Virus record (IMG/VR): IMGVR_UViG_3300030673_000009
Length of the DNA: 20,000 nucleotides
DNA from: an uncultured virus (IMG/VR IMGVR_UViG_3300030673_000009)
Taxonomy: Duplodnaviria > Heunggongvirae > Uroviricota > Caudoviricetes
Strand: one strand, 5' to 3'
Program-made: the position numbers and the translations under genes
Notes under the pieces: model-generated
Databases searched by the model: none
Seen by the model: only the letters and a program-made list of their open reading frames with translations
Told to the model about the DNA's origin: nothing
In this document: positions 1-20,000 of the stretch, piece after piece
Numbering within the stretch: position 1 is the stretch's first letter
Layout: each line of letters begins with the position of its first letter

Positions 1-1515
1 GAACCGGTTCGTCGCATCCCCGGCCATCCGCACGCCGCGGCTGAAGACCTTCCCCGACGTGCTCAGCGCATCACGGCCCGAGCCCATGCCGCCAGCCATC
101 ATGGCGCTCTGCATGCCCATGCCGGCACGCTCAGCACGAGTGGCTGGAACGCCCTCCTCCGCACCCACCCCGTACGAGGCCAGCGCCGCACCCTGCCGGA
201 AGTTCTTCAGCTGCTGGGAGTTGCGCAGGGCGTTCACGCCGCCCTTGACCATCGCCGCCACCATCAGGCCCTGCATCGCCGTGGAGATGCCACCCCACGC
301 AGCCCCGCCGATCGCCCCGACTGTGCCCGCCTTCTGGTAGGCATCCGAGCCGGTCGCGCCCTCCATCAGGCCGGCGACCTTCGTGGCGATCTTCAGCTGC
401 AGGCCCATCACGCCCATCAGCGGCTTGCCGATGTTGGAGATGGTCTGGCCCATCGTCTCCTTCAGCATCGACGCCTGGTCCAGTACGCCGCCCATCGCCG
501 CCCCAGCAGCCTCCTTGGTGCTGCCACTGCCGTAGGCGCCCACGCTCGTGTCGATCGCCCCACGCACCCCGCCAGGAGTGCGGGCCAGCGCCTGCAGCGA
601 TCGGGTGTCACGCACCGAGTCGAAGCCCAGGTTCTCCAGCAGCCGCTGCGAGCCCTGCCCGGCCTTGCTCAGCGACTCCGTGAACTGGTTGAGGACCTCC
701 GTCGGGTTCGACTTGAACATGTCCCGCAGCTTGTCGCTGGTCGTGCCCATGATGTCCGCGTACGCCTTCAGCTCCGGGCCGCCGTCACGGATGGACCGAT
801 TCATGTCCAGCAGGACCTTGTTGAAGACGTTGGCGCTGCGCACCCCGTCCTCGCCCAGCGAGCTCATCGCCGCCGAGAGGCCCATCACCGAGGTCTGGCC
901 GATGCCCACCGTCGCCGCGATCGGGGCCAGCGCCTTGGAGAACGCGATCGTCGCCGGCGCACTGGCACCCAGCTTCTTGGTCACCGTCGTCAGGGAGTCC
1001 GAGAGGGCCTCGAACTGGGAGACGCCGTTGCCCATCGACTTGCCCAGCAGCGTCATGTCCCGGCCGATCGAGGCCGCATTCGTGTTCGTCGCCGCACCCA
1101 GCTGCACGAACGACTTGCCCAGCGACTTGAACTGCTGCTCCGACTTCACCCCGACGGACTGGATCGACTCCATCACGTCGACCGCGCCCTGCATGCCGAT
1201 CGGGAAGTCCCGGGCCAGCGAGCGGGTCGCCGAGGACAGGTTCGCGAACGACTTGCCCGTCACCGTGGCCGTGGCCTCGATGTTCGCCAGGGCCTTCTGC
1301 TGCGCGGCCGCCGCATCCGCAGCGATCGAGTTGATCTTCGTGAAGCCCGTCAGCCGCTGCGTCGCCTGGACGAACGCCCCCGACATGTCCGCCGTCGCCC
1401 CGCGCACGCCGGTGGCGACCTGCATGTAGTTCTGCGACACCCCGATGGCCTGACCCATCGACTGGGTGAAGCCGGCGGTGTCAGCATTCAGCTGGAAGTC
1501 GACGGGAACGCTCAT
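1..1515 (-). CDS. Tape measure protein, N-terminal ~505 aa (continues beyond window start)
   Basis: Absent from the ORF track because no stop falls in the window. ATG at 1515 overlaps the upstream TGA (ATGA). Manual translation MSVPVDFQLNADTAGFTQSMGQAIG...KSFANLSSATRSLARDFPIG... is Ala/Gly/Ser-rich and TP901-core-like. Lies directly after the frameshifted tail chaperone. Confidence 0.9.
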   Translation of the reverse strand, partial: MSVPVDFQLNADTAGFTQSMGQAIGVSQNYMQVATGVRGATADMSGAFVQATQRLTGFTKINSIAADAAAAQQKALANIEATATVTGKSFANLSSATRSLARDFPIGMQGAVDVMESIQSVGVKSEQQFKSLGKSFVQLGAATNTNAASIGRDMTLLGKSMGNGVSQFEALSDSLTTVTKKLGASAPATIAFSKALAPIAATVGIGQTSVMGLSAAMSSLGEDGVRSANVFNKVLLDMNRSIRDGGPELKAYADIMGTTSDKLRDMFKSNPTEVLNQFTESLSKAGQGSQRLLENLGFDSVRDTRSLQALARTPGGVRGAIDTSVGAYGSGSTKEAAGAAMGGVLDQASMLKETMGQTISNIGKPLMGVMGLQLKIATKVAGLMEGATGSDAYQKAGTVGAIGGAAWGGISTAMQGLMVAAMVKGGVNALRNSQQLKNFRQGAALASYGVGAEEGVPATRAERAGMGMQSAMMAGGMGSGRDALSTSGKVFSRGVRMAGDATNRF

Positions 1516-1874
1516 CCCAAGCGCCCCTTCACCCGATTCGGCTGCTCACGCATGGCCTGCGCTACCTGCTTCGGGACGAGCGTGACTCGGGCGCCGGCGA
1601 GGGAGGCATCATCCTCACGGGCCATCTCCTTGATGTAGCAGCCATGGCACTGGACCGTGATCGGCTCGTACGCATACCAGTCCTCCTCCCACTCCCAGTC
1701 GCTCGTGCCGCAGGACTGGCACTTGCTGCTGGACTCCAGGAGGTAGGCGATCAGCTTCGCCCGATCCTCCGGATCCCATCCTAGGAGCGCGGAGTGGGGA
1801 AGGCCGTGATCAGCGCACCACGACTGCTCTAGGTAGAAGGTGCTGTCGTACCGGAGCCTTCTACGGTGAAAGGG
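1512..1874 (-). CDS. Tail assembly chaperone, -1 frameshift extension (gpGT-like C-terminal part)
   Basis: The -1 frame stays open from the slippery site: PFHRRRLRYDSTFYLEQSWCADHGLPHS...CQSCG...CHGC. Position between chaperone and tape measure genes is typical. Confidence 0.8.
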   Translation of the reverse strand, partial: PFHRRRLRYDSTFYLEQSWCADHGLPHSALLGWDPEDRAKLIAYLLESSSKCQSCGTSDWEWEEDWYAYEPITVQCHGCYIKEMAREDDASLAGARVTLVPKQVAQAMREQPNRVKGRLG

Positions 1875-2266
1875 ACGTCCAGGCCCCTCGAGCACACCTC
1901 GATGCACCCCACGAAGACCTCCATCACCTCACCGCGGGACCAGTCCTCGGAGTTCCAGATCTCCAGGGCCTCATTCGGGGTCAGCCGCGGCTCCCAGCTG
2001 CACGCCGCGATCAGGGCCGGGCCGAATGTCTCCGGGTTGTACGTCGCCCCGTCCTTCTTCTGCTCCGGGGTGGGCGGGTACTTGGCCATCAGGTCGTCGT
2101 ACGCCCGCGAGCCGATCGCCTTCAGCGTGATCACGAACTCGATCACGTCGCCGTCGGCGTCCGGCACCATCAGGACGACTTCCTTCGTCCGCTTCGGCTT
2201 GGCCTGCAGGTCCGCGAACGTCGCCTTCCGACGGGTGTCCTTCTTGGCAGGGCTCGGTGCACTCAT
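1829..2266 (-). CDS. Tail assembly chaperone (gpG-like), 145 aa
   Basis: Start revised to ATG 2266 (MSAPSPAKK), with AGGAG RBS at 2279-2275. Contains AIGSRAYDDLMAKYPP...YNPETFGPALIAAC; follows the major tail gene. Confidence 0.85.
   Translation of the reverse strand: MSAPSPAKKDTRRKATFADLQAKPKRTKEVVLMVPDADGDVIEFVITLKAIGSRAYDDLMAKYPPTPEQKKDGATYNPETFGPALIAACSWEPRLTPNEALEIWNSEDWSRGEVMEVFVGCIEVCSRGLDVPFTVEGSGTTAPST
1868..1874 (-). other. -1 programmed ribosomal frameshift heptamer C CCT TTC (tail assembly chaperone)
   Basis: GTC CCT TTC in the chaperone frame fits X XXY YYZ. A -1 slip gives CCC TTT CAC, the frame of ORF 1512..1907. Confidence 0.8.
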
Positions 2267-2285
2267 CACTGGTCTCCTAGGGGTG

Positions 2286-2344
2286 AAAACGCGTCGAGGA
2301 GGAACTCCCACCGACTGTAGCGGGAGATCCTCCTCGAGCAGCGT
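2286..2344 (-). terminator. Probable intrinsic terminator downstream of the major tail gene
   Basis: Minus strand TCGAGGAGGA-T-CTCCCGC-(TACAGTCG)-GTGGGAG-T-TCCTCCTCGA forms a ~17-bp stem with one mismatch and one G-U pair, followed by CGCGTTTT. Confidence 0.7.
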
Positions 2345-2350
2345 CATGAA

Positions 2351-3124
2351 CTACGGCGTGTGGACGAGGACGCCCGTCGCCGTCTGGCCGCCGGTGCCCG
2401 TGCCGTTCACGGCAGCGACCTTGAAGAAGTAGTCGGTGCCCGTGACCAGTGCGGTGATCCGGGCGGTCGTGCCGGTCTTGGTGATGTTGGTCGTGACCTC
2501 GGTGTACGAGCCACCCAGCGTCGACGACTGGTAGACCTTGTAGCTGGTCGGCGAGCCGAGCAGCGGGGCGTCCCAGTCCAGGACGACGACCGTGGCCGAC
2601 TCCGCAGCACCGGTGAGGTTGCGCGGCACGCTCGGAACGGCAGCGACACCCGTGACGATCGCGGACTCCGCCGGCTCCTCGGGGACCGAGCCGGTCACCG
2701 TGAAGGTCTGGACGGTGTTGGAGGCGATCGCGGCCATGGTGCGCGAGACGACCATCAGCGGCCACACCTCGACGCCGTCGCCCGCACGAGGCTTCTGGTT
2801 CACGCCCGAGCCGCCGAAGCGGGAGACGAAGAAGTAGCCGTCGGCCGCACGCGGAAGGGTCTCCCACGCGGTGTCGGCCTCGTCGTCGCGGTAGAAGTCA
2901 CCGGTGAACGACGCCTGGACAGTGCCCGGGACCGAGGTCTCGAAGAGACTGTCGAGGTTGGGGGTCGGCACCGTGTTGCCCTGCGCCGAGGGGTTCAGCG
3001 AGACGATGAACGGCGTCAGCACGATGGCAGCGTCGAGCTCGGCCTCGGTGGGGGCAGCGAGGACAGCCGGACGGACAGTCGTCCACGCAATCCAGGTCTG
3101 CTCATTGGGGATGATGCGTGACAT
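2351..3124 (-). CDS. Major tail (tube) protein with C-terminal fibronectin type III domain, 257 aa
   Basis: LAAPTEAEL...LTPFI...GNTVPTPNLDSLFETSVPG resembles actinophage tail tube proteins. C-terminal PSVPRNL...LDWDAP...SYKVY...YFFKVAAVN is an FN3 signature. AAGGAG RBS upstream. Confidence 0.88.
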   Translation of the reverse strand: MSRIIPNEQTWIAWTTVRPAVLAAPTEAELDAAIVLTPFIVSLNPSAQGNTVPTPNLDSLFETSVPGTVQASFTGDFYRDDEADTAWETLPRAADGYFFVSRFGGSGVNQKPRAGDGVEVWPLMVVSRTMAAIASNTVQTFTVTGSVPEEPAESAIVTGVAAVPSVPRNLTGAAESATVVVLDWDAPLLGSPTSYKVYQSSTLGGSYTEVTTNITKTGTTARITALVTGTDYFFKVAAVNGTGTGGQTATGVLVHTP

Positions 3125-6789: not shown

Positions 6790-7575
6790 CTACGCCGGAG
6801 TCACGTTGACGGCCGTGGACGCCGCGCCATTGCCCGCGATGTTCACCGCACGCAGCTGGATGCTCACCTGCACGCCGTTCGTCAGGCCCGTGACCACCAG
6901 AGGCGAGCCCGTGCAGGCAGGGACCTTGGAAGTCCACGCGCCCGCGCCCACCTTGTACTGGTACTCGCTGATCGGCGCCCCGCCATCGTTCGAGGGGGCG
7001 TTGAACGCGATGCTCGCGGACGTGTTGCCAGGAGTGGCCACAAGAGCAAGCGGCGCAGACGAGGTCGTTCGCGGCGTAGCAACGGTCGCACTCGAGACCA
7101 CACCCTCCCCGAACGCGTTCACGCTGCGCAGCTCGAACGAGTACGCCTGGCCATTGACCAGGCCCGTGAACACCTGGCCGTTCGTCACGCTCGCCCACTC
7201 GCCGCCATCGATGCGCCCCTGCGTGCTCGTGGCACCACCAGCAGCCGTGAACGCCAGCGTCAGCTGCGCGTTGCCCGGGGTCACGCTGATCCCCGTCGGG
7301 GCAGCAGGAGCATCCTGCAGCTCCTCCTGCTCCAGGAAGTCCCGCAGCACCACCGCGCCGAGCGGGGTCACCGTGGGGTGCCCCGCCGGCGTACGGCGAT
7401 GGAACGGGTCCGGAGTGGCGTACAGGACGCCCTTGGACAGCAGGGCGTTCAGGGCGTTCGTCCTCGCCAGCTCCGTCACATGCGCGACGTCCAGACGATC
7501 ACCCTTCGCGTAGGAGTGACCCCGAAGGGTCACCGCCCTACCCGCCTTGATGTCCGTGGGAACCCGGCCGGCCAT
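6790..7575 (-). CDS. Putative capsid decoration protein with two FN3 domains, 261 aa
   Basis: Two FN3 repeats (APAAPTGISVTPGN...GLVNGQAYSFELRSVN and SSAPLALVATPGN...GLTNGVQVSIQLRAVN); immediately follows the capsid gene. Confidence 0.75.
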   Translation of the reverse strand: MAGRVPTDIKAGRAVTLRGHSYAKGDRLDVAHVTELARTNALNALLSKGVLYATPDPFHRRTPAGHPTVTPLGAVVLRDFLEQEELQDAPAAPTGISVTPGNAQLTLAFTAAGGATSTQGRIDGGEWASVTNGQVFTGLVNGQAYSFELRSVNAFGEGVVSSATVATPRTTSSAPLALVATPGNTSASIAFNAPSNDGGAPISEYQYKVGAGAWTSKVPACTGSPLVVTGLTNGVQVSIQLRAVNIAGNGAASTAVNVTPA

Positions 7576-11919: not shown

Positions 11920-14424
11920 TCAGTCATCAGTATCCACGAACCGAAGGGCATATTCATTCACGATGAAGTCCGGAGTGTGCATGAGGACGTCCTGGCCGAT
12001 GCCGTGCTCGGCAGCCACCTCGTAGAAGGACCGGAACTTCGGCTCGCCGTAGATGACGGCCAAGGCCTTCCGTGCGCCCTTCCAGTCGGTCTTGTCACCC
12101 GTCACCATCGTGCGAGCCACCAGAGGACTGGACGGGGCGATGACCACCGGGATGTTCTTCTGCTCACCCGTGTCGAAGTCGATCCTGCGCTCGACGATCG
12201 GTGAGGCATTCGCCAGGTCGTCCACGTGGATGGACTTGCCGTTGAACAGGAACATGCCGTCCTCACCGGCGTCCTTGCTGGCGTCGACCATGTCCGAGAA
12301 GAAGTTCACGGCCATCGCGTAGGCCTCATCGACGCCAAGATTGCCAGTGTTCCTGATGACATGACGCTCGTTCGACGGCGTGCTCTTGGCCTCCCCACGG
12401 GCCTTGCCCGCCATCCGCAACAGCGCATCGGTCACCGAGGTGGTGCTGGCGTCCTTCAGCCGCAGCGTGATCTGCTGCTGCTCAGCCCACGGGTCACCCG
12501 CATCATTGAACGTGCTGAACCCGGCACCGCTGATGAAGGCAGCCTGAATGGCCGACTCCTTCGTCTCCTCGGGAGCGCTCTGGACCGCCTTCACCCGCTT
12601 GCGGGCATCGATCCTCGTCTTGCGTCCATGCGCCAGCCGGTCCTTGCGAGCACCGGCCATCCGGGCCTCCCGCTTGGAGGGCTTGCTCGAGGACAGGATC
12701 TGCGCCGTGGAAGCCTGCTCGTCGGCCTCCATCATCTGCCGCAGCACCGCGTAGTCCCGATCTGTCAGCACTGGGGCCTTCGGCGCCTTCCGCTGAGCCT
12801 GCTGGGTGCGGAACCGGTTCTTGGCCGCCTTCCGCTTCCGACGACCCTCACGGGCGTCGAACCCACTCGTCGGCTGGACACGATCCGGCTGGTCGTCGAA
12901 GCGGCCACGGGAGTCCCGGCGCACCTCGTTCTCGTCGAACTCGTCAGCCTTCGTCAAAGGGTCGTGCGGGAGATCCGGCGTCACCTTCGCGCTCGGCTTG
13001 TTCGCGTACGGCCGGTCATCCCACACCCGCGGGAACGCCCCGTCATTGTCCAGCTCCAGATGCAGCACCGGCATCGGAACGGCCAGGCCACGACGACTGC
13101 CCGGGTTCGCCGACGGCGCCCACCGCAGGAACTTGTCCTGCTGGTAGTCGTAGCCGTCGGAGTTCGTGGCGGCATTCTTCAGCGTGTTCAGACGGGCATT
13201 GCCAGCCATCGTGATCTCGGGATCACGCGGTCCGCCCTCGCTCGAGGCGAACGTGCCGTCAATGCTCAGCATGACGTACTCACTCAGCATCAAGCGCCGG
13301 TCCGGGTCCTGGTTGAGCCCCCTCAGCAGGCTCTCCATGTCATCCGGAGTCAGCCACGTCACCTTCGACGCCTTCTTGGAGTCGACGTTGCCCATGTAGA
13401 ACGACTCGCTCTTGAGCATGTGATCAGCCTGGTCCCGGGTGACCAGCGCCACCCGGTGGTCATCGAACTTGTGGCCCATGCCGCTGCCCTCGAACGGCTT
13501 GGCCAAGTCATCCTCGGGAGCATCGTCAGCACCGACTGAGCGCAGCTTGCGCTGGCCCTTGGCCTCCGCGATGCGCTGGGACCTGCGGGCGTTCAGCCGA
13601 TCCGCACGCTTGCTCCCCAGCTGCTCGGTGACCGGCTCCTGCTCGGCCTGCTGTGAGGCACCGAACTGGTGCCGGATCGCCGCAGCCAGATCCGCCAGGC
13701 CACCGGGCGCCTGCCGCTGGGAGCGCTGGGCCTTCTGCCGCCGGACGTTCACCGCGGCCTTGCGCTTGCGCCGGGCCTCCCGAGCCTCGAAGGCGCTGGA
13801 GGGCGTACCGCGCTCCGGAGCATGGGCGAACCGGCCGCGACCATCCCGCGGATGCTCGTCCGGGTCGAACTCCTCATCCATCGACTTGGAGACCATCGGC
13901 ATCGGGGTGCTCTCCCGACGGGCCACATGCGAGGCGAACTCCATCAGGACGCGATCACCGATGTCCGCACGCACGGTCGGGGCAAGCGCAGGCTTCCCCA
14001 GATCACCGTAGGCCTTCCCGAGCCTGTCCGCCGGCACCCCGTGCACCGAGGCCACCCGCTCGATCGCCGTCGGCCACGGCATCCCCGTGTTCGTCAGGGA
14101 CAGCAGCAGGCGCTCCGTGGCGTCCACGGCCTGCTGGTGCAGGTTCGAGGCCAGCAACTGCCCGTAGCGGCCCGAAGCGGCCCCCAGGACAGGCCGGGTG
14201 GCCTCACCCAGCGCTTTCGCCACCGGCTCGAGGTCCACATCGTCAAGCACCTGGTGCACCCGTGCCACATCCACCAGGGTGTGACGGCTCAACCGCTCCA
14301 GCGCCGACGAAGCGATGCCGTGGTACCCGAGTACCGCCGTACCCACGCCCTGCTCGAGATCGGAGTCGTCCACCAGCGCCAGCACCGCCCGCGACTGGTC
14401 GGCGTCCGCCCACCACCGGGTCAC
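11920..14424 (-). CDS. Large head-region protein with two tandem RDxxGRF-headed modules, 834 aa
   Basis: GTGA-coupled to the AAA gene, high GC3 frame, internal duplication visible at protein level. Confidence 0.8.
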   Translation of the reverse strand: MTRWWADADQSRAVLALVDDSDLEQGVGTAVLGYHGIASSALERLSRHTLVDVARVHQVLDDVDLEPVAKALGEATRPVLGAASGRYGQLLASNLHQQAVDATERLLLSLTNTGMPWPTAIERVASVHGVPADRLGKAYGDLGKPALAPTVRADIGDRVLMEFASHVARRESTPMPMVSKSMDEEFDPDEHPRDGRGRFAHAPERGTPSSAFEAREARRKRKAAVNVRRQKAQRSQRQAPGGLADLAAAIRHQFGASQQAEQEPVTEQLGSKRADRLNARRSQRIAEAKGQRKLRSVGADDAPEDDLAKPFEGSGMGHKFDDHRVALVTRDQADHMLKSESFYMGNVDSKKASKVTWLTPDDMESLLRGLNQDPDRRLMLSEYVMLSIDGTFASSEGGPRDPEITMAGNARLNTLKNAATNSDGYDYQQDKFLRWAPSANPGSRRGLAVPMPVLHLELDNDGAFPRVWDDRPYANKPSAKVTPDLPHDPLTKADEFDENEVRRDSRGRFDDQPDRVQPTSGFDAREGRRKRKAAKNRFRTQQAQRKAPKAPVLTDRDYAVLRQMMEADEQASTAQILSSSKPSKREARMAGARKDRLAHGRKTRIDARKRVKAVQSAPEETKESAIQAAFISGAGFSTFNDAGDPWAEQQQITLRLKDASTTSVTDALLRMAGKARGEAKSTPSNERHVIRNTGNLGVDEAYAMAVNFFSDMVDASKDAGEDGMFLFNGKSIHVDDLANASPIVERRIDFDTGEQKNIPVVIAPSSPLVARTMVTGDKTDWKGARKALAVIYGEPKFRSFYEVAAEHGIGQDVLMHTPDFIVNEYALRFVDTDD

Positions 14425-15332
14425 GAAGCGACCTTCTTCTTCCGGCTCGTCGGCACCAGGCGGCCCTTGATCGGATCCTTCACGTTGCCCGTGACGATGT
14501 AGGCGTTCATGCCGGCCTTCACGTCACCAGTGGTGATCGTGGACAGGTCACGCTTGGTCAGCGGCTTGCCCTGCGAGGTCTTCTGGTTCGCCAGGCGCAC
14601 CCGCTGGGCCGTCTCGATCTTCTCGAACAGGTTCCGCACGTCACCGGCGTTGCCCGCGCCCGTGTACTGCAAGGCATCCACCATCGCATGACGCACCTCG
14701 GTGGCCTTCTTGCCCGACCCGATCGTGTACTTGCCCTCCCGGGTCAGGCCCTGCATCACCTCGAACCGGTCATCCAGGCTCAGCTCAGGGAAGTTCAGCG
14801 TCGTCGGGAAGCGCCGGCGCATGCCCGTGTTCGAGTTCAGCAGAGTGTCCATCTCCGGGCCGTACCCCGCGAGGATGACCACCGTGTTGTCCCGGTGGTT
14901 CTCCGCCTGGCGCAGCAGCTCGGCCACGGCCTGCTGGCCGTACTCGTCGTTGTCGCCCGACACCATCGAGTAGGCCTCATCGATGAAGATGACGCCGCCG
15001 ATCATGCCGCCGTCGCCGGTCTTCTCGTCCCCCTCGAACAGGGCGCGGACCTTCGCCCCCGACTGGCCCTTGTACCGGGCAATCAGGTCAGGCCCGGAGA
15101 TCTCCCGGAAGCCCTCATCCGTCGCCGGATCCTTGTCCACCAGTCCGAGGGCGTGGTACAGCCGGCCGATGTCCCTTGCCACCGTCGTCTTGCCCGTGCC
15201 CGGGGCACCCGACATCACCAGGTGCATCGTCTTGTTCGACACCGGAAGGCCCTGGCGCTTGCGATCCTGATCGACCTCAGCCGACTGCGCCAGCTCCATC
15301 ACCTGCTGCTTGACCGGGGCCAGCCCGACCAT
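14421..15332 (-). CDS. AAA+ ATPase, CbbX/SpoVK/EccA family (303 aa from ATG 15332, or the C-terminal part of a frameshift fusion)
   Basis: MVGLAPVKQQV, HLVMSGAPGTGKTTVAR (Walker A), DLIARYKGQS, GGVIFIDEAYS (Walker B), VVILAGY, GMRRRF, GNAGDVRN. No convincing RBS before 15332. Confidence 0.92.
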   Translation of the reverse strand: MVGLAPVKQQVMELAQSAEVDQDRKRQGLPVSNKTMHLVMSGAPGTGKTTVARDIGRLYHALGLVDKDPATDEGFREISGPDLIARYKGQSGAKVRALFEGDEKTGDGGMIGGVIFIDEAYSMVSGDNDEYGQQAVAELLRQAENHRDNTVVILAGYGPEMDTLLNSNTGMRRRFPTTLNFPELSLDDRFEVMQGLTREGKYTIGSGKKATEVRHAMVDALQYTGAGNAGDVRNLFEKIETAQRVRLANQKTSQGKPLTKRDLSTITTGDVKAGMNAYIVTGNVKDPIKGRLVPTSRKKKVAS

Positions 15333-15346
15333 CGCGAAGATGCGGC

Positions 15347-18300
15347 CTATCGCAGCCTGAACCCCTGCCCGGTCAGGACCCGCCCCGTCCTGTGCGGGAC
15401 GAACGGCAGGCCTTGCGCCGCCCGCCGCGCCACTGCCTTGGACAGCGGGTGGGACTTGGACAGGACCTCGACTCGGACCGGATTCGCCGCCTTCACGATC
15501 CGGTCGTCCCCTTTTGGGACTGCCTCCCCAGCATCGAAGGCATTGACCAGCCTCGTGGTCATCGCCAGCGACCATGCACGCTGCAGTGCCGCTGCCTCCT
15601 CCTCAGCCGGGAAGTTGCGGATCAGGCCGGGGATGTCGGCATCCTTCGGCAGGTTCACCATGCCGTAGTCGTCCTGCGTCAACGACCCGTACTCGAAGGC
15701 CGTCATCATGGCCTTCTGGTTCACCACGTCGAAGACGTTGTCGTTCGTGGTGTCCGGGTCCATCGCCCTCTTGGCATCGGCCACCGCCTTGAGCGCCTTG
15801 ACACGCTCGACCACCTGGTTGTTCATCTCCACCAGCGAGCGGTACTGGGTGCCGTCATCGGAGGTCACCAGCTCGCGGGCCATGTCCGCGATCGGCTTCG
15901 GCTCCTGCTTGTAGGCGTCCAGCACCTGGGCGCCGGTCTGGATCCGGTCGATGCCCGGGTACGCCTGCGGCACCGGAAGGTCCGTGGCCTTCGCCCCGTG
16001 GAACGGGTCAGAGCCCGACACGAACGGGCCGCCCGCGAGGATCAGGCCATCAGCGACATCAGCCGCGGTATCCGACACCCACTGCATCGCTGCAGCGCCC
16101 TTATGGCCGGCGATCTCGTTCTCCGCCTCGATCCAGTCCTTCTCGTTGCCGTTCGTGGTATTGATCGCCTGCTTGAACGCGCCCTGCACCGCCTTCGGGT
16201 CACCCAGTGCTCGAGCGGCCAGCAGCGCCTTGCCGCGGTCGGAGAAGATCTCGTTCATCGTCTTAAGGTTCTGGCTCATCAGCCAGCCCGCGAAGTTCAC
16301 CGGGGACGCCTGGGCAGCCTCATCGAACGACAGGCCCTCCGTCGCCTCGTCATTGACGTTGATCGCCGCCAGCTCGTTCTTCAGCTGCGTCTGCTGGGCC
16401 ATCACCGTCTCATGCAGCTGCGCCCGCTTCTTCTCCATCCGGGAGTTCAGCGCCACCGGGGCGGCCGGAGGGACGTCCTTGGTATCGGTCGGGGCCGCAG
16501 CACCCTCAGCGGCCGGCTTCGGGGTCTCCGGAGCCTCCTCCTTCGGAGCCGAGGCCTGACCCGTACGCGGCTTGTTCTGCAGCTGCGGGGTGCCACGGTC
16601 GTAGAACCCGGCCTTGATCCCCTGAGCCCGCAGCGCACCGGGCTTGGTGTAGCCGCGATCCTCGGTAAACGTGCGCCCCTTGGGCATCTCCCCGCGCAGC
16701 GACGGGCCGCCCTCGTTCACGAACGTGTTCAGGTCACGCACGCCCACCCGGCGGATGAAGTACGGGAACTGCTGCTGCAGCGTCTGCAGCGCCACCGCGT
16801 ACCCCTCGCCGTTCAGGCGCAGCTTGTTCGCCTTCGTCGAGGCCACCCGCTGGATCTCATCCTCGAGGTTCTCCTCGTAGGCCCGGGCCGCCACGCCACG
16901 CGGAGGCTTCTCCGCGGTGTAGCCCATCTCCGCGAGGACCTTCGCCGACGCGGCTGCCTCATCCTCGTTCGTGATGCGCGAGGCGTCCTGGCGGGCACGG
17001 TCCACCCGCTCGCTGTACGCCGCGAGCGCATCATCGCCCTTCAGGCCGGCGTCCCTGATCCCCGCCCGAATCCTCGACTTCTCCTGCGGGGAGACGTCCA
17101 CCAGGTACTCCCCGGAGTTCGCCACCGCATCCAGGATCTTCAGGTACCGGTCGTCCATGTCGCGGGCCTTGTCGGAGTTCCCGCGGGCACCGCGGAAGTC
17201 CGGGGCCATCTCCAGGGTGAACACCCCACTCGGGCTGATGACCTGCACGTTGCGGGCACCCATCGTCACCGCCGCGTAGATGTCCTCGCCCGTCAGGCCA
17301 CCGGACATGCGGGTGCGGGCGTACTGGCCACCCCGCAGCGATCCGAGGTTCTTCAGGTCGAACGGCAGGTAGTGGTCGTCGGTGAAGCCCACCGACTGGC
17401 TGACGATCTTGCCCTGGGCGTTGATGAGCACGCCCTGGCTGGGAAGGATCTGGCCGGACAGCTCGCTCAGCCGCGCCACCATCGGGTCCCGGGGCAGGGT
17501 CCGCGCCAGCTCGGCGCTGGCCACGTCACCACGCACCTGCATCGCCAGGGCGTCACCGGACAGGCCCTTCTTGCGGGCAGCGATGTCGAAGCCCTCCACC
17601 GGGGTGTCCGCCTGCGTGGGAGTGATCCCCGCACGCTCCATCTGGTCGATCTGCTTGAACTGGCCCACCAGCTGCTCGTCAGGAGTCGTCTCCGTGCCCC
17701 GGTAGCGGTAGGCGGCACGCTGGGCGTACGGGCCGAGCACCTGCTCCGCCTGCGGGCCCACCGAGCCGATGAACGCCGCCGTCTGCCCCAGCTTGTCCTG
17801 CCCGGTCACCTGCGACAGGACGTTGCCGCCGGACTGCAGCTGGCCGAAGAAGCGGGTCAGCTTCGACTGGTCGGGGTTCGAGCCCATCTGCAGGTTCGAC
17901 TGCAGCTCCTTCAGCCGCGCCGGGTCCACCGTCGACATCGACGCCAGGGCCGCACCGCCGCGAGCACCCAGCAGGTTGTACGTGCCGACCTTGTTGCGCA
18001 CGTCCTCGCCGGCACCGGCCGCCGGAGCCACGCTCATGGCGAAGACGGTCTCGTTCGCCGCCACCTTGACCGGAACCGTCTCGTTGCCGAAGTCGGACAG
18101 CCTGGCCGTGCGGGACACGATGTCGCCATTGTCCGTGGCGATCATCATCGTCACGTCGACCTTGTTCGGATCCACCCCGCGCAGGGCGTCCTTGAACTCC
18201 CCAGCCACGCGGATGGTCTGCTCGTGCTGGCTCTGCACTCGCTCGAGCCTCTCCCGCTCCGACGACTTCTTGTCATCGGTGAGGATGCTCGCATCGGTCT

Positions 18301-18769
18301 TCAGGGAGTTGCGCACCGACGGAGCCACCTGCTTGCTGTCAGCAGGCTTGTCGATGCCCTTGAGGTCCGTGCGGGAGGTGCTGGAGATCTTCCGGGCGAA
18401 CTGGCCCTTCGCATCGCGCTCCACGTCCACCTGGCGCTGCGTGCCGTTCATGTTGAACCACTCGAAGTCCTTGGACACCGTCTGGGCGCTGACCACGTAC
18501 TGCTCCAGCCCCGCCAGATACTCCGCGGCCTTCTGGATCTCGTCGCTGGGGTACTGGCCGCCGACGATCATCTCCACGTACGAGCGCCCCAGCTGCCGCT
18601 TGGCGACCTGGATGCGGTCGAGGTTCACCAGCGAGTACAGGCCGGTGATGTCCTTCTCGACGATCTTGGCGTAGTCCGTCAGGTAGTCGTAGACCACCGC
18701 ATCGATGAAGGCGCAGCCAGCAGCCTCGTCTGCCTTCATGACATCGACGAAGACATCCATGACGCTCAT
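15347..18769 (-). CDS. Large head-region protein, ~1140 aa, with RDxxGQF motif and a degenerate JAB/MPN-like segment
   Basis: Long high-GC3 ORF; ATG 18769 with AGGGAG RBS 5 nt upstream. Function inferred (putative internal or ejected protein). Confidence 0.8.
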   Translation of the reverse strand: MSVMDVFVDVMKADEAAGCAFIDAVVYDYLTDYAKIVEKDITGLYSLVNLDRIQVAKRQLGRSYVEMIVGGQYPSDEIQKAAEYLAGLEQYVVSAQTVSKDFEWFNMNGTQRQVDVERDAKGQFARKISSTSRTDLKGIDKPADSKQVAPSVRNSLKTDASILTDDKKSSERERLERVQSQHEQTIRVAGEFKDALRGVDPNKVDVTMMIATDNGDIVSRTARLSDFGNETVPVKVAANETVFAMSVAPAAGAGEDVRNKVGTYNLLGARGGAALASMSTVDPARLKELQSNLQMGSNPDQSKLTRFFGQLQSGGNVLSQVTGQDKLGQTAAFIGSVGPQAEQVLGPYAQRAAYRYRGTETTPDEQLVGQFKQIDQMERAGITPTQADTPVEGFDIAARKKGLSGDALAMQVRGDVASAELARTLPRDPMVARLSELSGQILPSQGVLINAQGKIVSQSVGFTDDHYLPFDLKNLGSLRGGQYARTRMSGGLTGEDIYAAVTMGARNVQVISPSGVFTLEMAPDFRGARGNSDKARDMDDRYLKILDAVANSGEYLVDVSPQEKSRIRAGIRDAGLKGDDALAAYSERVDRARQDASRITNEDEAAASAKVLAEMGYTAEKPPRGVAARAYEENLEDEIQRVASTKANKLRLNGEGYAVALQTLQQQFPYFIRRVGVRDLNTFVNEGGPSLRGEMPKGRTFTEDRGYTKPGALRAQGIKAGFYDRGTPQLQNKPRTGQASAPKEEAPETPKPAAEGAAAPTDTKDVPPAAPVALNSRMEKKRAQLHETVMAQQTQLKNELAAINVNDEATEGLSFDEAAQASPVNFAGWLMSQNLKTMNEIFSDRGKALLAARALGDPKAVQGAFKQAINTTNGNEKDWIEAENEIAGHKGAAAMQWVSDTAADVADGLILAGGPFVSGSDPFHGAKATDLPVPQAYPGIDRIQTGAQVLDAYKQEPKPIADMARELVTSDDGTQYRSLVEMNNQVVERVKALKAVADAKRAMDPDTTNDNVFDVVNQKAMMTAFEYGSLTQDDYGMVNLPKDADIPGLIRNFPAEEEAAALQRAWSLAMTTRLVNAFDAGEAVPKGDDRIVKAANPVRVEVLSKSHPLSKAVARRAAQGLPFVPHRTGRVLTGQGFRLR
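15476..15518 (-). other. Candidate -1 frameshift cassette: C CCA AAA + 6-nt spacer + 8-bp stem-loop
   Basis: Heptamer at 15518-15512 is in the correct phase of the upstream ORF. Stem arms GACCGGAT (15505-15498) and ATCCGGTC (15483-15476). The -1 frame is open through to the AAA domain. Confidence 0.7.
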
Positions 18770-18778
18770 GAGCACTCC

Positions 18779-20000
18779 CTAGCTGCGTGTGCCCGGCATG
18801 GAGCCGTGGCGTGTGCTGATCTTCCCACTCGGCGAGCGGGTCAGGCCTCCAACACGAGGCCTCGGTGTGGTCAGTCCCGCGCCGATCCTGCGGGTGTAGT
18901 TGATCTTCGGGATGCGCAGCAGAGCCTTGCCCACGCCCTTGCGGTCCAGTTCGGCCCTGACCTCCCGGTACCGCCGCACGGAGTTGTCGTCTAGCCCGCG
19001 ATAGGCCTCCGACAGGCCTGACGCCCGCAGATCCGCACGCAACCGGGTCGCGCCGTAACGGGTGTTCGACGCGGTTCCCGCCCGCTCGTAGGCGGAGTAC
19101 CTGCGGTTCTTCGGTCGCATCGCCTGATTCGCCCGGGCCTCGTCCGCCAGCCCCTTCGTCGGATTCGAGATGGTCCGCACCACCGCCGACAGCGGCTTGC
19201 GGCGCCTCACATGCGCCAGCTCGTGGTTCTTCATGTCATCGGCCAGACCGCGGACCCCCATCGGACTGCGCTTGGGGTGGAAGACGATCGCATCCGCATG
19301 CCGCTGCGACTGGCCCGGCTTCAACCCCGCCGGGAAGTACCCGCCGACCAGGCTGCCGGGATCCTTGTCGATGAACCGCGACACCTCGTGGCCGCCGACC
19401 ATGTGCTTGACCGGCTTGCGCTGGAACGTCGTACCGGCCGTCAACTCGCTCGGACTGTCCACCATCGCCCTCACGGCACGCAGTCCCTCGCTCACCTTGC
19501 GGGAGATCCGCTTGTTCTTCGCGCTCACCCCACCCAGCGACGCATGCGACGGAGCATTGCGCAGCAGCCTCTTCGGCACGCTCGACGCCGACCGGAAGAC
19601 AGCACCCTCACCGGGGATGTTCACCAACGACTTGGCGACCCGGTCCCGGCCCAGCTCGCCGACAGCGGCCCGCTGGTAGGCCTTCGCCTTGATCTTGTTC
19701 ATCCGGCGCTGCATGCCACGAGCGCTGCGGACGTTGTTGGACGCCTCGATGCCGGCCATCAGGCCACCGGCCATGTACGCCGTCGTCGCCAGCCGGTTGC
19801 CGGGCTTCACGCCGGACTTCGCGCCCATGATCCCGGCAAGGCCAGCCACCGTGCCGTTGCCGGTGCCCATGCCTACGTCGACGTTGCGACGGTGCTTGAG
19901 GTCCCGGTAGCCGCGCTCGGCATCCGTGGAGATGTTCTGGGAGTGCGTGCGCAGGAAGCGGTCCTTCTTGACCACCTCGGGGTTCTTCAGCCTCTGCTGC
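18779..20000 (-). CDS. Basic modular protein containing a HExxH zincin-like motif (5' end outside window)
   Basis: The frame stays open to the window edge (QQRLKNPEVVKKDRF...), so 19975 is probably not the true start. Contains KNHELAHV...DEARAN. Confidence 0.75.
   Translation of the reverse strand, partial: QQRLKNPEVVKKDRFLRTHSQNISTDAERGYRDLKHRRNVDVGMGTGNGTVAGLAGIMGAKSGVKPGNRLATTAYMAGGLMAGIEASNNVRSARGMQRRMNKIKAKAYQRAAVGELGRDRVAKSLVNIPGEGAVFRSASSVPKRLLRNAPSHASLGGVSAKNKRISRKVSEGLRAVRAMVDSPSELTAGTTFQRKPVKHMVGGHEVSRFIDKDPGSLVGGYFPAGLKPGQSQRHADAIVFHPKRSPMGVRGLADDMKNHELAHVRRRKPLSAVVRTISNPTKGLADEARANQAMRPKNRRYSAYERAGTASNTRYGATRLRADLRASGLSEAYRGLDDNSVRRYREVRAELDRKGVGKALLRIPKINYTRRIGAGLTTPRPRVGGLTRSPSGKISTRHGSMPGTRS

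Follow-up and report, generated by a model that had tools for sequence, protein, structure and literature searches.

A conserved slippery heptamer as the probable site of a -1 frameshift joining a giant head-module protein to an AAA+ ATPase in an uncultured tailed phage

Two adjacent genes in the head region of an uncultured tailed phage raise the question of whether they are translated as two proteins or, in part, as one. They lie in a stretch of 20,000 nucleotides (nt) of IMG/VR record IMGVR_UViG_3300030673_000009 (Caudoviricetes), here called the window, which is 67% GC and has all its genes on the minus strand. The upstream gene encodes a giant protein of 1142 amino acids (aa), and the gene behind it, in the -1 frame, encodes an AAA+ ATPase. 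An earlier inspection of the letters alone, referred to below as the sequence-only reading, proposed that ribosomes slip near the end of the big gene and thereby produce a form of ~1140 aa and a fused form of ~1450 aa. Relatives of the locus support this proposal, since the same arrangement recurs in 46 of the 46 loci in which it could be expected, and six further loci encode both parts as a single frame. We consider it highly probable that the locus carries a programmed -1 ribosomal frameshift of the bacterial dnaX type, with predicted products of 1142 aa and ~1451 aa. The elements concerned are the following.

15347..18775, minus strand: zero-frame open reading frame (ORF) that encodes the giant head-module protein (1142 aa when counted from GTG 18775) and ends at TAG 15349-15347
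15523..15529, minus strand: Shine-Dalgarno (SD)-like element GGGGAGG, candidate 5' stimulator, 4 nt before the heptamer
15512..15518, minus strand: slippery heptamer C CCA AAA, in the register of the zero frame, where it codes for P1087-K1088; the G after it is invariant
15476..15505, minus strand: downstream hairpin with a perfect 8-bp stem and a 14-nt loop
15347..15511, minus strand: the 54 aa with which the short product ends in the zero frame, GDDRIVKAANPVRVEVLSKSHPLSKAVARRAAQGLPFVPHRTGRVLTGQGFRLR
15333..15512, minus strand: -1-frame linker of 60 codons, rich in Gly, Pro, Ala and Arg
14421..15332, minus strand: gene for an AAA+ ATPase belonging to the SpoVK/CbbX/EccA clade (303 aa when counted from ATG 15332), with its stop at 14423-14421

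The zero-frame codons at the site are GTC CCA AAA GGG, and they contain, as the sequence-only reading had it, a heptamer of the X XXY YYZ type at 15518-15512 that is in phase with the ORF 18775..15347. The A-ending codons had been described as rare, and the counts bear this out: over the 19 genes of the window, 2 of the 331 lysines are encoded by AAA and 13 of the 338 prolines by CCA, and the GC content at third codon positions (GC3) of the big gene is 0.91. CCCAAAA occurs a single time in the 20 kb, both strands counted. The sole other AAA Lys codon in the 19 genes is located at 14217-14215 (minus strand) in the gene for an 834-aa protein, outside any slippery heptamer. Upstream of the site, GGGGAGG (15529-15523) forms a predicted anti-SD duplex of -10.7 kcal/mol, which is in the top 1% of positions in the gene when scored with a short anti-SD motif. 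Downstream, after a 6-nt spacer (15511-15506), the perfect 8-bp stem noticed earlier is formed by the arms GACCGGAT (15505-15498) and ATCCGGTC (15483-15476), and its minimum free energy (MFE) lies at the 7th percentile among 45-nt windows of the big gene. Within the window alone, the codon choice at the heptamer is the only signal beyond chance.

The two frames then diverge as had been proposed. The -1 frame is free of stops from 29 codons upstream of the heptamer, through the Gly/Pro linker and VQAAIGRIFAMVGLAPVK, to the ATPase stop at 14421, and the open stretch from the site to that stop comprises 363 codons. The linker overlaps the last 54 zero-frame codons and a further 14-nt gap, and the dual-coded part (15511-15347) amounts to 165 nt, in agreement with the ~165 nt given earlier. 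The zero-frame tail contains the three xxK[AS] motifs that had been pointed out (IVKA, LSKS and LSKA) and is itself conserved among relatives, in which RVxVL, PLS and GxPxVP recur. The short form ends with [FLY]VP[THSR], represented in the window by GLPFVPHRTG. A database copy of the big protein is annotated from ATG 18769 and has 1140 aa.

The significance of the site comes from its conservation in relatives and not from the window alone. We collected 157 loci from viral, genome and metagenome collections, of which the genome-contig collection contributed only 2, and classified them together with the window, giving 158 sources in the following classes.

46 loci: big gene followed by an ATPase gene in a different frame
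6 loci: single ORF with both parts
63 loci: no ATPase in at least 1500 nt downstream
37 loci: big ORF runs off the contig
6 loci: downstream sequence too short

The 46 loci of the first class form 28 lineages (clusters at 90% identity), range in GC content from 0.42 to 0.72, and have big proteins 31-77% identical to that of the window. In every one of them (46/46) the ATPase is in the -1 frame, and this frame is open from an in-phase slippery heptamer, which is CCCAAAA in 45 and CCCTTTC in one (L087). The sequence-only reading had named homologues with -1 stops and no conserved heptamer as the finding that would speak against it, and the opposite is seen. Over the 32 lineage representatives CCCAAAAG is invariant in 31, and the remaining one has CCCTTTCG; third positions neighbouring CCCAAAAG carry only 0.1-0.4 bits.

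The flanking features follow the same pattern. Between the site and the ATPase, none of the 28 lineages has a -1 stop, and upstream of the site the stop density reaches up to 0.16 per codon. This is clearest in the low-GC lineages, where a -1 stop occurs every 6-8 codons in the big gene and none across the 46-93 codons from the site to the ATPase. A -1 stop is present within 10 codons upstream of the site in 19/28 lineages. An SD-like element located 4-17 nt before the heptamer ranks in the top 5% of the gene's positions in 25 of the 28 lineages. The downstream region cannot be aligned between lineages and hairpins were therefore assessed per sequence, as MFE percentiles of the 45 nt that begin 4 nt past the heptamer. 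The value falls in the lowest 10% of control windows for 21 of the 28 lineages, with stem sequences that differ from lineage to lineage.

Is the overlap translated in the -1 frame? One indication is a peptide motif. In 169,544 aa of plus-strand ORFs from the 32 lineage representatives, L[VA]PTG occurs 20 times, and 18 of these occurrences are found 21-111 nt past the site in the -1 frame. The underlying DNA varies at -1 third positions, and the same span yields 12 kinds of zero-frame peptide vs 2 in the -1 frame; as the instances were chosen by the -1 motif, only the enrichment is an unbiased test. The longer form G-x-L-[VA]-P-T-G hardly occurs outside the -1 linker and the C-terminus of the ATPase; it is found in the -1 linkers of L014, L017, L020-L024, L026, L031, L032, L081 and L089-L099. 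In the window, an LVPT motif, which in relatives is usually in the -1 linker, is carried by the end of the ATPase instead:

14424..14468, minus strand: C-terminal tail of the ATPase, ...KGRLVPTSRKKKVAS, with the LVPT motif

The L-[VA]-P-T motif may be a cleavage or docking site. A sortase signal was considered for L-V-P-T-G and rejected, there being no hydrophobic anchor after the motif.

A second line of evidence concerns where the ATPase domain begins. In relatives, matches to the SpoVK, EccA and CbbX profiles begin 5-13 residues before the conserved Met that corresponds to ATG 15332, and the ATPase domain therefore starts upstream of any candidate start codon. The sequence-only reading had likened AAIGRIFA to the N-terminal helix of the family. 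The resemblance is weak in the window itself, where the Met is residue 61 of the -1 product and the profiles match from residues 59-61 onward, and clearer in the relatives. In 16 of 17 lineages the SD scores of candidate ATPase starts do not rise above background; neither ATG nor GTG is present in L007 near the start of the domain, and in L011 and L021 the first ATG is 3 codons inside the conserved motif. ATG 15332 had been said to lack a clear ribosome-binding site, and indeed its anti-SD duplex (-2.4 kcal/mol vs a background median of -3.6 in the window) is equalled or bettered by 72% of background positions. The one-frame fusion L065 retains, in its interior, the Met that corresponds to ATG 15332, which makes it a structural residue of the family. 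The peptide motif, the profile starts, the weak start codons and the Met in L065 all speak for translation of the overlap in the -1 frame.

The same evidence bears on whether a free ATPase might be made as well. Both routes could operate side by side, with the frameshift giving the fusion and reinitiation at ATG 15332 giving a free 303-aa ATPase; this is compatible with a programmed frameshift, and we regard it as somewhat unlikely. The ATG is 14 nt past the zero-frame stop, and a Met is present at its position in 12 of 16 frameshift lineages in an alignment of the ATPases (A2). RNA-library contigs from two runs (X17 and X18, peat and wetland metatranscriptomes), identical to the window, span 15123-15416, and the X17 contig 15266-15416 bridges the zero-frame stop and the ATG, no RNA-library contig reaching the heptamer. 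Both ORFs would thus be on one transcript if these contigs represent RNA; metatranscriptome libraries may contain DNA. Against reinitiation, ATG 15332 has no SD-like sequence, the distance from stop to Met differs between relatives (14 to 65 nt), a variation that ill suits translational coupling, and L007, L008, L011 and L021 have another residue at the Met position. The retention of the Met inside L065 likewise points to a structural role.

It could also be argued that no productive frameshift takes place, that the ATPase is made from its own start only, and that the heptamer is kept since the big protein needs Pro-Lys. P1087 is nearly invariant in the protein alignment, and by composition the -1 overlap of the window resembles non-coding sequence. 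A need for Pro-Lys leaves unexplained why the rare codons CCA AAA and the C that precedes them should be invariant at a GC3 of about 0.9, why the ATPase has the -1 phase in 46/46 loci, why the -1 frame is free of stops in low-GC lineages, and why a -1 peptide motif is conserved. It also fails to account for the slippery Pro-Phe variant. In L087 (5024-5030) C CCT TTC (Pro-Phe) replaces C CCA AAA (Pro-Lys), with GGTGATG upstream and a -1 frame open into the ATPase; the amino acids have changed and the site is still slippery, which argues against conservation for the sake of the amino acids. We therefore think it very unlikely that the ATPase depends on its own start alone.

One-frame fusions of both parts were found in six distant loci: L062 (1233 aa), L065 (1288 aa) and L144-L147. 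L062 and L065 contain the conserved core of the big protein followed by AAA and AAA_lid_6 in a single ORF, flanked by the same neighbours. Both retain GGTGG...C CCA AAA G in phase (5907-5913 in L062 and 5556-5562 in L065), and after the site the -1 frame ends at 31 codons in L062 and at 12 in L065. The downstream fold is a strong hairpin in L062 (-16.7 kcal/mol) and reaches only -7.4 in L065. Slipping in these two loci would yield a short form without the ATPase, and both forms would still be made, with the roles of the frames reversed. That two forms appear to be kept in both arrangements is the strongest sign that selection acts on the ratio of motor-bearing to motor-free copies.

The fusions also help to judge two other explanations. 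The site might be a conserved pause or regulatory element, acting in co-translational folding or mRNA stability, with slipping as a rare by-product; SD-like elements and hairpins are generally known to pause ribosomes without frameshifting. Such an element requires no slippery heptamer, no open -1 frame and no conserved -1 peptide, and the one-frame fusions indicate that the joined protein is a selected product, which makes the pause element highly improbable. Conversely, single-ORF fusions in distant relatives might suggest that an assembly or sequencing indel has split one fusion gene in the window, or that it is a pseudogene. An identical split at the same heptamer in 46 loci, 28 lineages and separate assemblies renders this barely conceivable. 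In addition, a DNA contig of run X1, possibly derived from the source sample, covers 14824-16264 without a difference, and the zero-frame tail past the site is itself conserved. Transcriptional slippage was rejected on general knowledge, a run of four A being too short for it.

Several observations weigh against a programmed frameshift or limit the force of the evidence for it. The hairpin of the window has an MFE of -18.7 kcal/mol with a z-score of only -1.18, and 23 of 200 shuffled sequences fold equally well; from the -1 stop density of the big gene itself, the probability that 60 codons contain no -1 stop is 0.31. Judged by the window only, both the open -1 frame and the hairpin are what chance would produce in DNA of 67% GC. 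The protein is Gly-rich before Pro-Lys, which could explain part of the G-rich upstream element. GC3 is 0.55 in the -1 linker vs 0.91 in the zero frame, and so it is the zero frame that sets the composition of the overlap; L[VA]PTG is absent from the window's own -1 linker. Among the 28 lineages, 3 have no outstanding SD-like element and 7 no outstanding hairpin. The stop-free stretches of the 28 lineages give a summed log10 P of -57.9 with lineages treated as independent, which is an upper bound on the significance, the lineages being related. The position of ATG 15332 could permit reinitiation giving a free ATPase. Finally, none of 118 database homologues of the big protein (763-1225 aa) is annotated as a fusion; gene callers would not join frames.

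Set against these points, the sequences show an in-phase and conserved slip signal, a -1 peptide under selection, and fusions of both parts in one frame. The following course of events would fit. Most ribosomes would read the giant gene to TAG 15349-15347 and release the 1142-aa protein. A fraction would pause on C CCA AAA, with GGGGAGG paired to 16S rRNA behind and the hairpin ahead, and the Pro and Lys tRNAs would re-pair one base back (CCA to CCC, AAA to AAA). Translation would then pass through the 60-residue Gly/Pro linker into the AAA+ ATPase, giving a product of ~1451 aa composed of residues 1-1088 and 363 more. The ATPase would act mainly within this fusion, where the big protein may serve as an N-terminal targeting or substrate domain, like the TPR domain of EccA, and the frameshift would set a fixed ratio of motor-bearing to motor-free copies in head assembly. 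We infer from the sequences that slipping occurs, that the ATPase acts mainly as the fusion and that the ratio is fixed during head assembly.

A similar site is found in front of a different extension. Among the 63 loci without an ATPase, an in-phase CCCAAAA is present in 6; in 5 of these it is near the end of the ORF and opens a -1 extension of 176-274 aa of another kind. Four lineages (L043/L110, L050/L120, L081 and L138) have the CCCAAAAG site near the end of the big gene and a helical -1 extension of 176-274 aa, with no ATPase. The codon starts of the site (0-based) are given below.

L043: 6160
L050: 6193
L081: 5054
L138: 2125

Profile searches with the -1 extensions of L043, L050, L081 and L138 gave no family above noise. 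L081 is on a contig of a Microlunatus metagenome-assembled genome. In L153 the in-phase CCCAAAA is far from the end of the ORF.

A more far-reaching interpretation sees in the locus the Gag-Pol of a phage. On this view the giant protein is an internal component of the head, and the frameshift would fix the number of motor-bearing copies, with a few motors built into each procapsid. LVPT might be a cleavage site at which the prohead protease releases the motor, or else a docking peptide; the motor might act in the head or be ejected into the host with the DNA. As the same signal appends another domain of 176-274 aa in four lineages, the site would also be a general module junction. This interpretation is based on the analogy with Gag-Pol and on the placement of the LVPT motif, and we judge it unlikely.

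The ATPase has the Walker A motif GAPGTGKTT and the Walker B motif FIDEAY, and G102, G105, G107, K108, T109, D178 and E179 are invariant in alignment A2. It matches the Pfam families AAA (PF00004, 2.5e-17) and AAA_lid_6 (PF17866, 4e-9). Among NCBIfam models the matches are to EccA (5.4e-56, 190 bits), SpoVK (7.8e-54, 182 bits) and CbbX (9.7e-45, 153 bits), for which the equivalog cut-offs are 467, 423 and 459 bits, respectively. On this evidence the protein is a member of the SpoVK/CbbX/EccA clade and none of the three named proteins. The ATPase of Mycobacterium phage Adler was dropped from consideration, being a 633-aa EccA-like gene in another context.

The big protein is less easily placed. 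No Pfam or PHROG family was found for it, and there was no usable match in the ESM Atlas. A profile search of PDB gave one weak match (E 0.008) to a mitoribosomal protein, which was disregarded. A predicted model of the conserved core (residues 300-745) has a predicted local distance difference test (pLDDT) score of 85.4. Foldseek gave no match to this model at E <= 0.001, and in a wide VIA-align search the best Z was 5.0. Deaminase, JAMM and Cap3 entries scored Z 3.8-4.9, which is under the noise level of the tool, and any likeness of this central domain to a JAB/MPN or cytidine-deaminase-like fold is sub-threshold. We infer from gene position alone that the big protein is a head component; the 'head cargo protein' of the sequence-only reading has the same sole basis.

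To our knowledge, the conserved frameshifts described in tailed phages belong mainly to the tail assembly chaperone pair and to capsid decorations. Like the chaperone pair G/GT, the present case would be a conserved -1 frameshift in the structural module of a tailed phage, giving a short and a long form. It concerns another gene pair, however: G/GT is between the tail tube and tape measure genes and its extension is a small chaperone domain, not an enzyme, whereas the slip site described here is between portal-side genes and the protease, scaffold and capsid genes. The window also has C CCT TTC at 1874-1868 (minus strand), in phase near the end of a 172-aa gene (2347..1829) with an overlapping -1 ORF (1907..1512), and presumably marks the ordinary frameshift of the tail assembly chaperone. 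The heptamer of the chaperone pair is the same as that of L087 at the ATPase site.

For the capsid frameshift of Lactobacillus phage A2 the heptamer is said to be C CCA AAA, which would be the one found here, and in both cases the -1 frameshift is near the end of a head gene. In A2 an Ig-like decoration domain is added to the major capsid protein, unlike the ATPase on a giant non-capsid protein in the window. PMC5009743 mentions the A2 case as an extension of the capsid protein by -1 frameshifting.

A close parallel in the arrangement of the signal is the tau/gamma cassette of Escherichia coli dnaX, which according to PMC5009743 consists of A AAA AAG with an SD-like element upstream and a stem-loop downstream. 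The two have in common the three-part layout of the signal, with the downstream hairpin a candidate element here, the bacterial ribosome, two forms (predicted ones here) that differ in their C-terminal domains, and the AAA+ family. As in the dnaX genes of some bacteria covered there, the roles of the frames are reversible, the long form being the zero-frame product in L062 and L065, where a slip would lead to the short form. Unlike dnaX, the heptamer is C CCA AAA, slipping would add the ATPase in the window and 27 other lineages rather than remove domains, and the gene belongs to a phage head module and has no similarity to dnaX beyond the AAA+ fold. The likeness to Gag-Pol of retroviruses and totiviruses, which the same text treats, is that a -1 frameshift close to where the upstream ORF ends gives some copies of a structural-module protein an enzyme, and that the ratio is fixed; by analogy, the enzyme could be carried into the particle. 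Here the setting is instead a DNA phage and the enzyme an AAA+ ATPase, and packaging and later cleavage are hypothetical. With EccA the predicted fusion shares its layout, in which the AAA+ module (AAA and AAA_lid_6) is C-terminal to a large first part, although its 153-190 bits are far under the equivalog cut-offs of 423-467 for EccA, SpoVK and CbbX. No description of this frameshift was found in the open full-text literature, taken without supplements, including PMC10885494 (PRFect), PMC5009743, PMC12484599 (phage G) and PMC7911831 (Hardycor1).

The surrounding genes, in their order along the minus strand, are listed below.

19975-18779, minus strand: 398-aa protein, the first gene listed along this strand
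After the 1142-aa protein, minus strand: the AAA+ ATPase (15332-14421), an 834-aa protein, an XkdF-type prohead protease (11902-11126), and a scaffold or cement-like protein
Then, minus strand: the major capsid protein, head-tail proteins, the tail tube protein, the chaperone pair and the tape measure protein

In relatives the block begins directly after a Mu-type portal gene, and this, together with its composition, places the finding in the head-gene block of a tailed phage. The 834-aa protein and the MuF-like protein of L065 have no pairwise similarity. Fibronectin type III domains are found at the C-termini of the tail tube protein (2351-3124) and of a 261-aa protein (6790-7575), both on the minus strand, the latter gene being directly after the capsid gene; these domains are likely surface decorations. 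Antisense to the big gene there is an open frame of 1200 aa (15392-18994, plus strand). Long shadow ORFs of this kind are numerous in the GC-rich window, and open frames alone therefore mean little there.

The window stretch is complete in 16 peat-metagenome runs. From the RNA-library contigs the phage may be active in situ, DNA carry-over being possible. Its nearest record (G001) is a 14-kb fragment, and the site is outside its span. With 14421-15800 as a DNA query no match was obtained among 50,697 phage records, nor with the big protein by tblastn against the phage records; the fused form of L144, searched in the same way, gave matches to the ATPase part alone.

If the frameshift is true, a giant head-module protein gains by it an AAA+ remodelling enzyme, and the device has been kept over phages ranging from 42 to 72% GC. 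For annotation, this would mean that the ATPase gene should be joined to the upstream gene and that the 'start codon' of the ATPase is untrustworthy. The big-protein family has more than 100 members and no known domain, and the frameshift gives an entry to its function. Four arrangements are now apparent, in which a slip would add the motor, a slip would drop the motor, the gene is fused without a slip site, or a slip would add another domain. As a series they lend themselves to the question of what makes a constant proportion of the two forms necessary.

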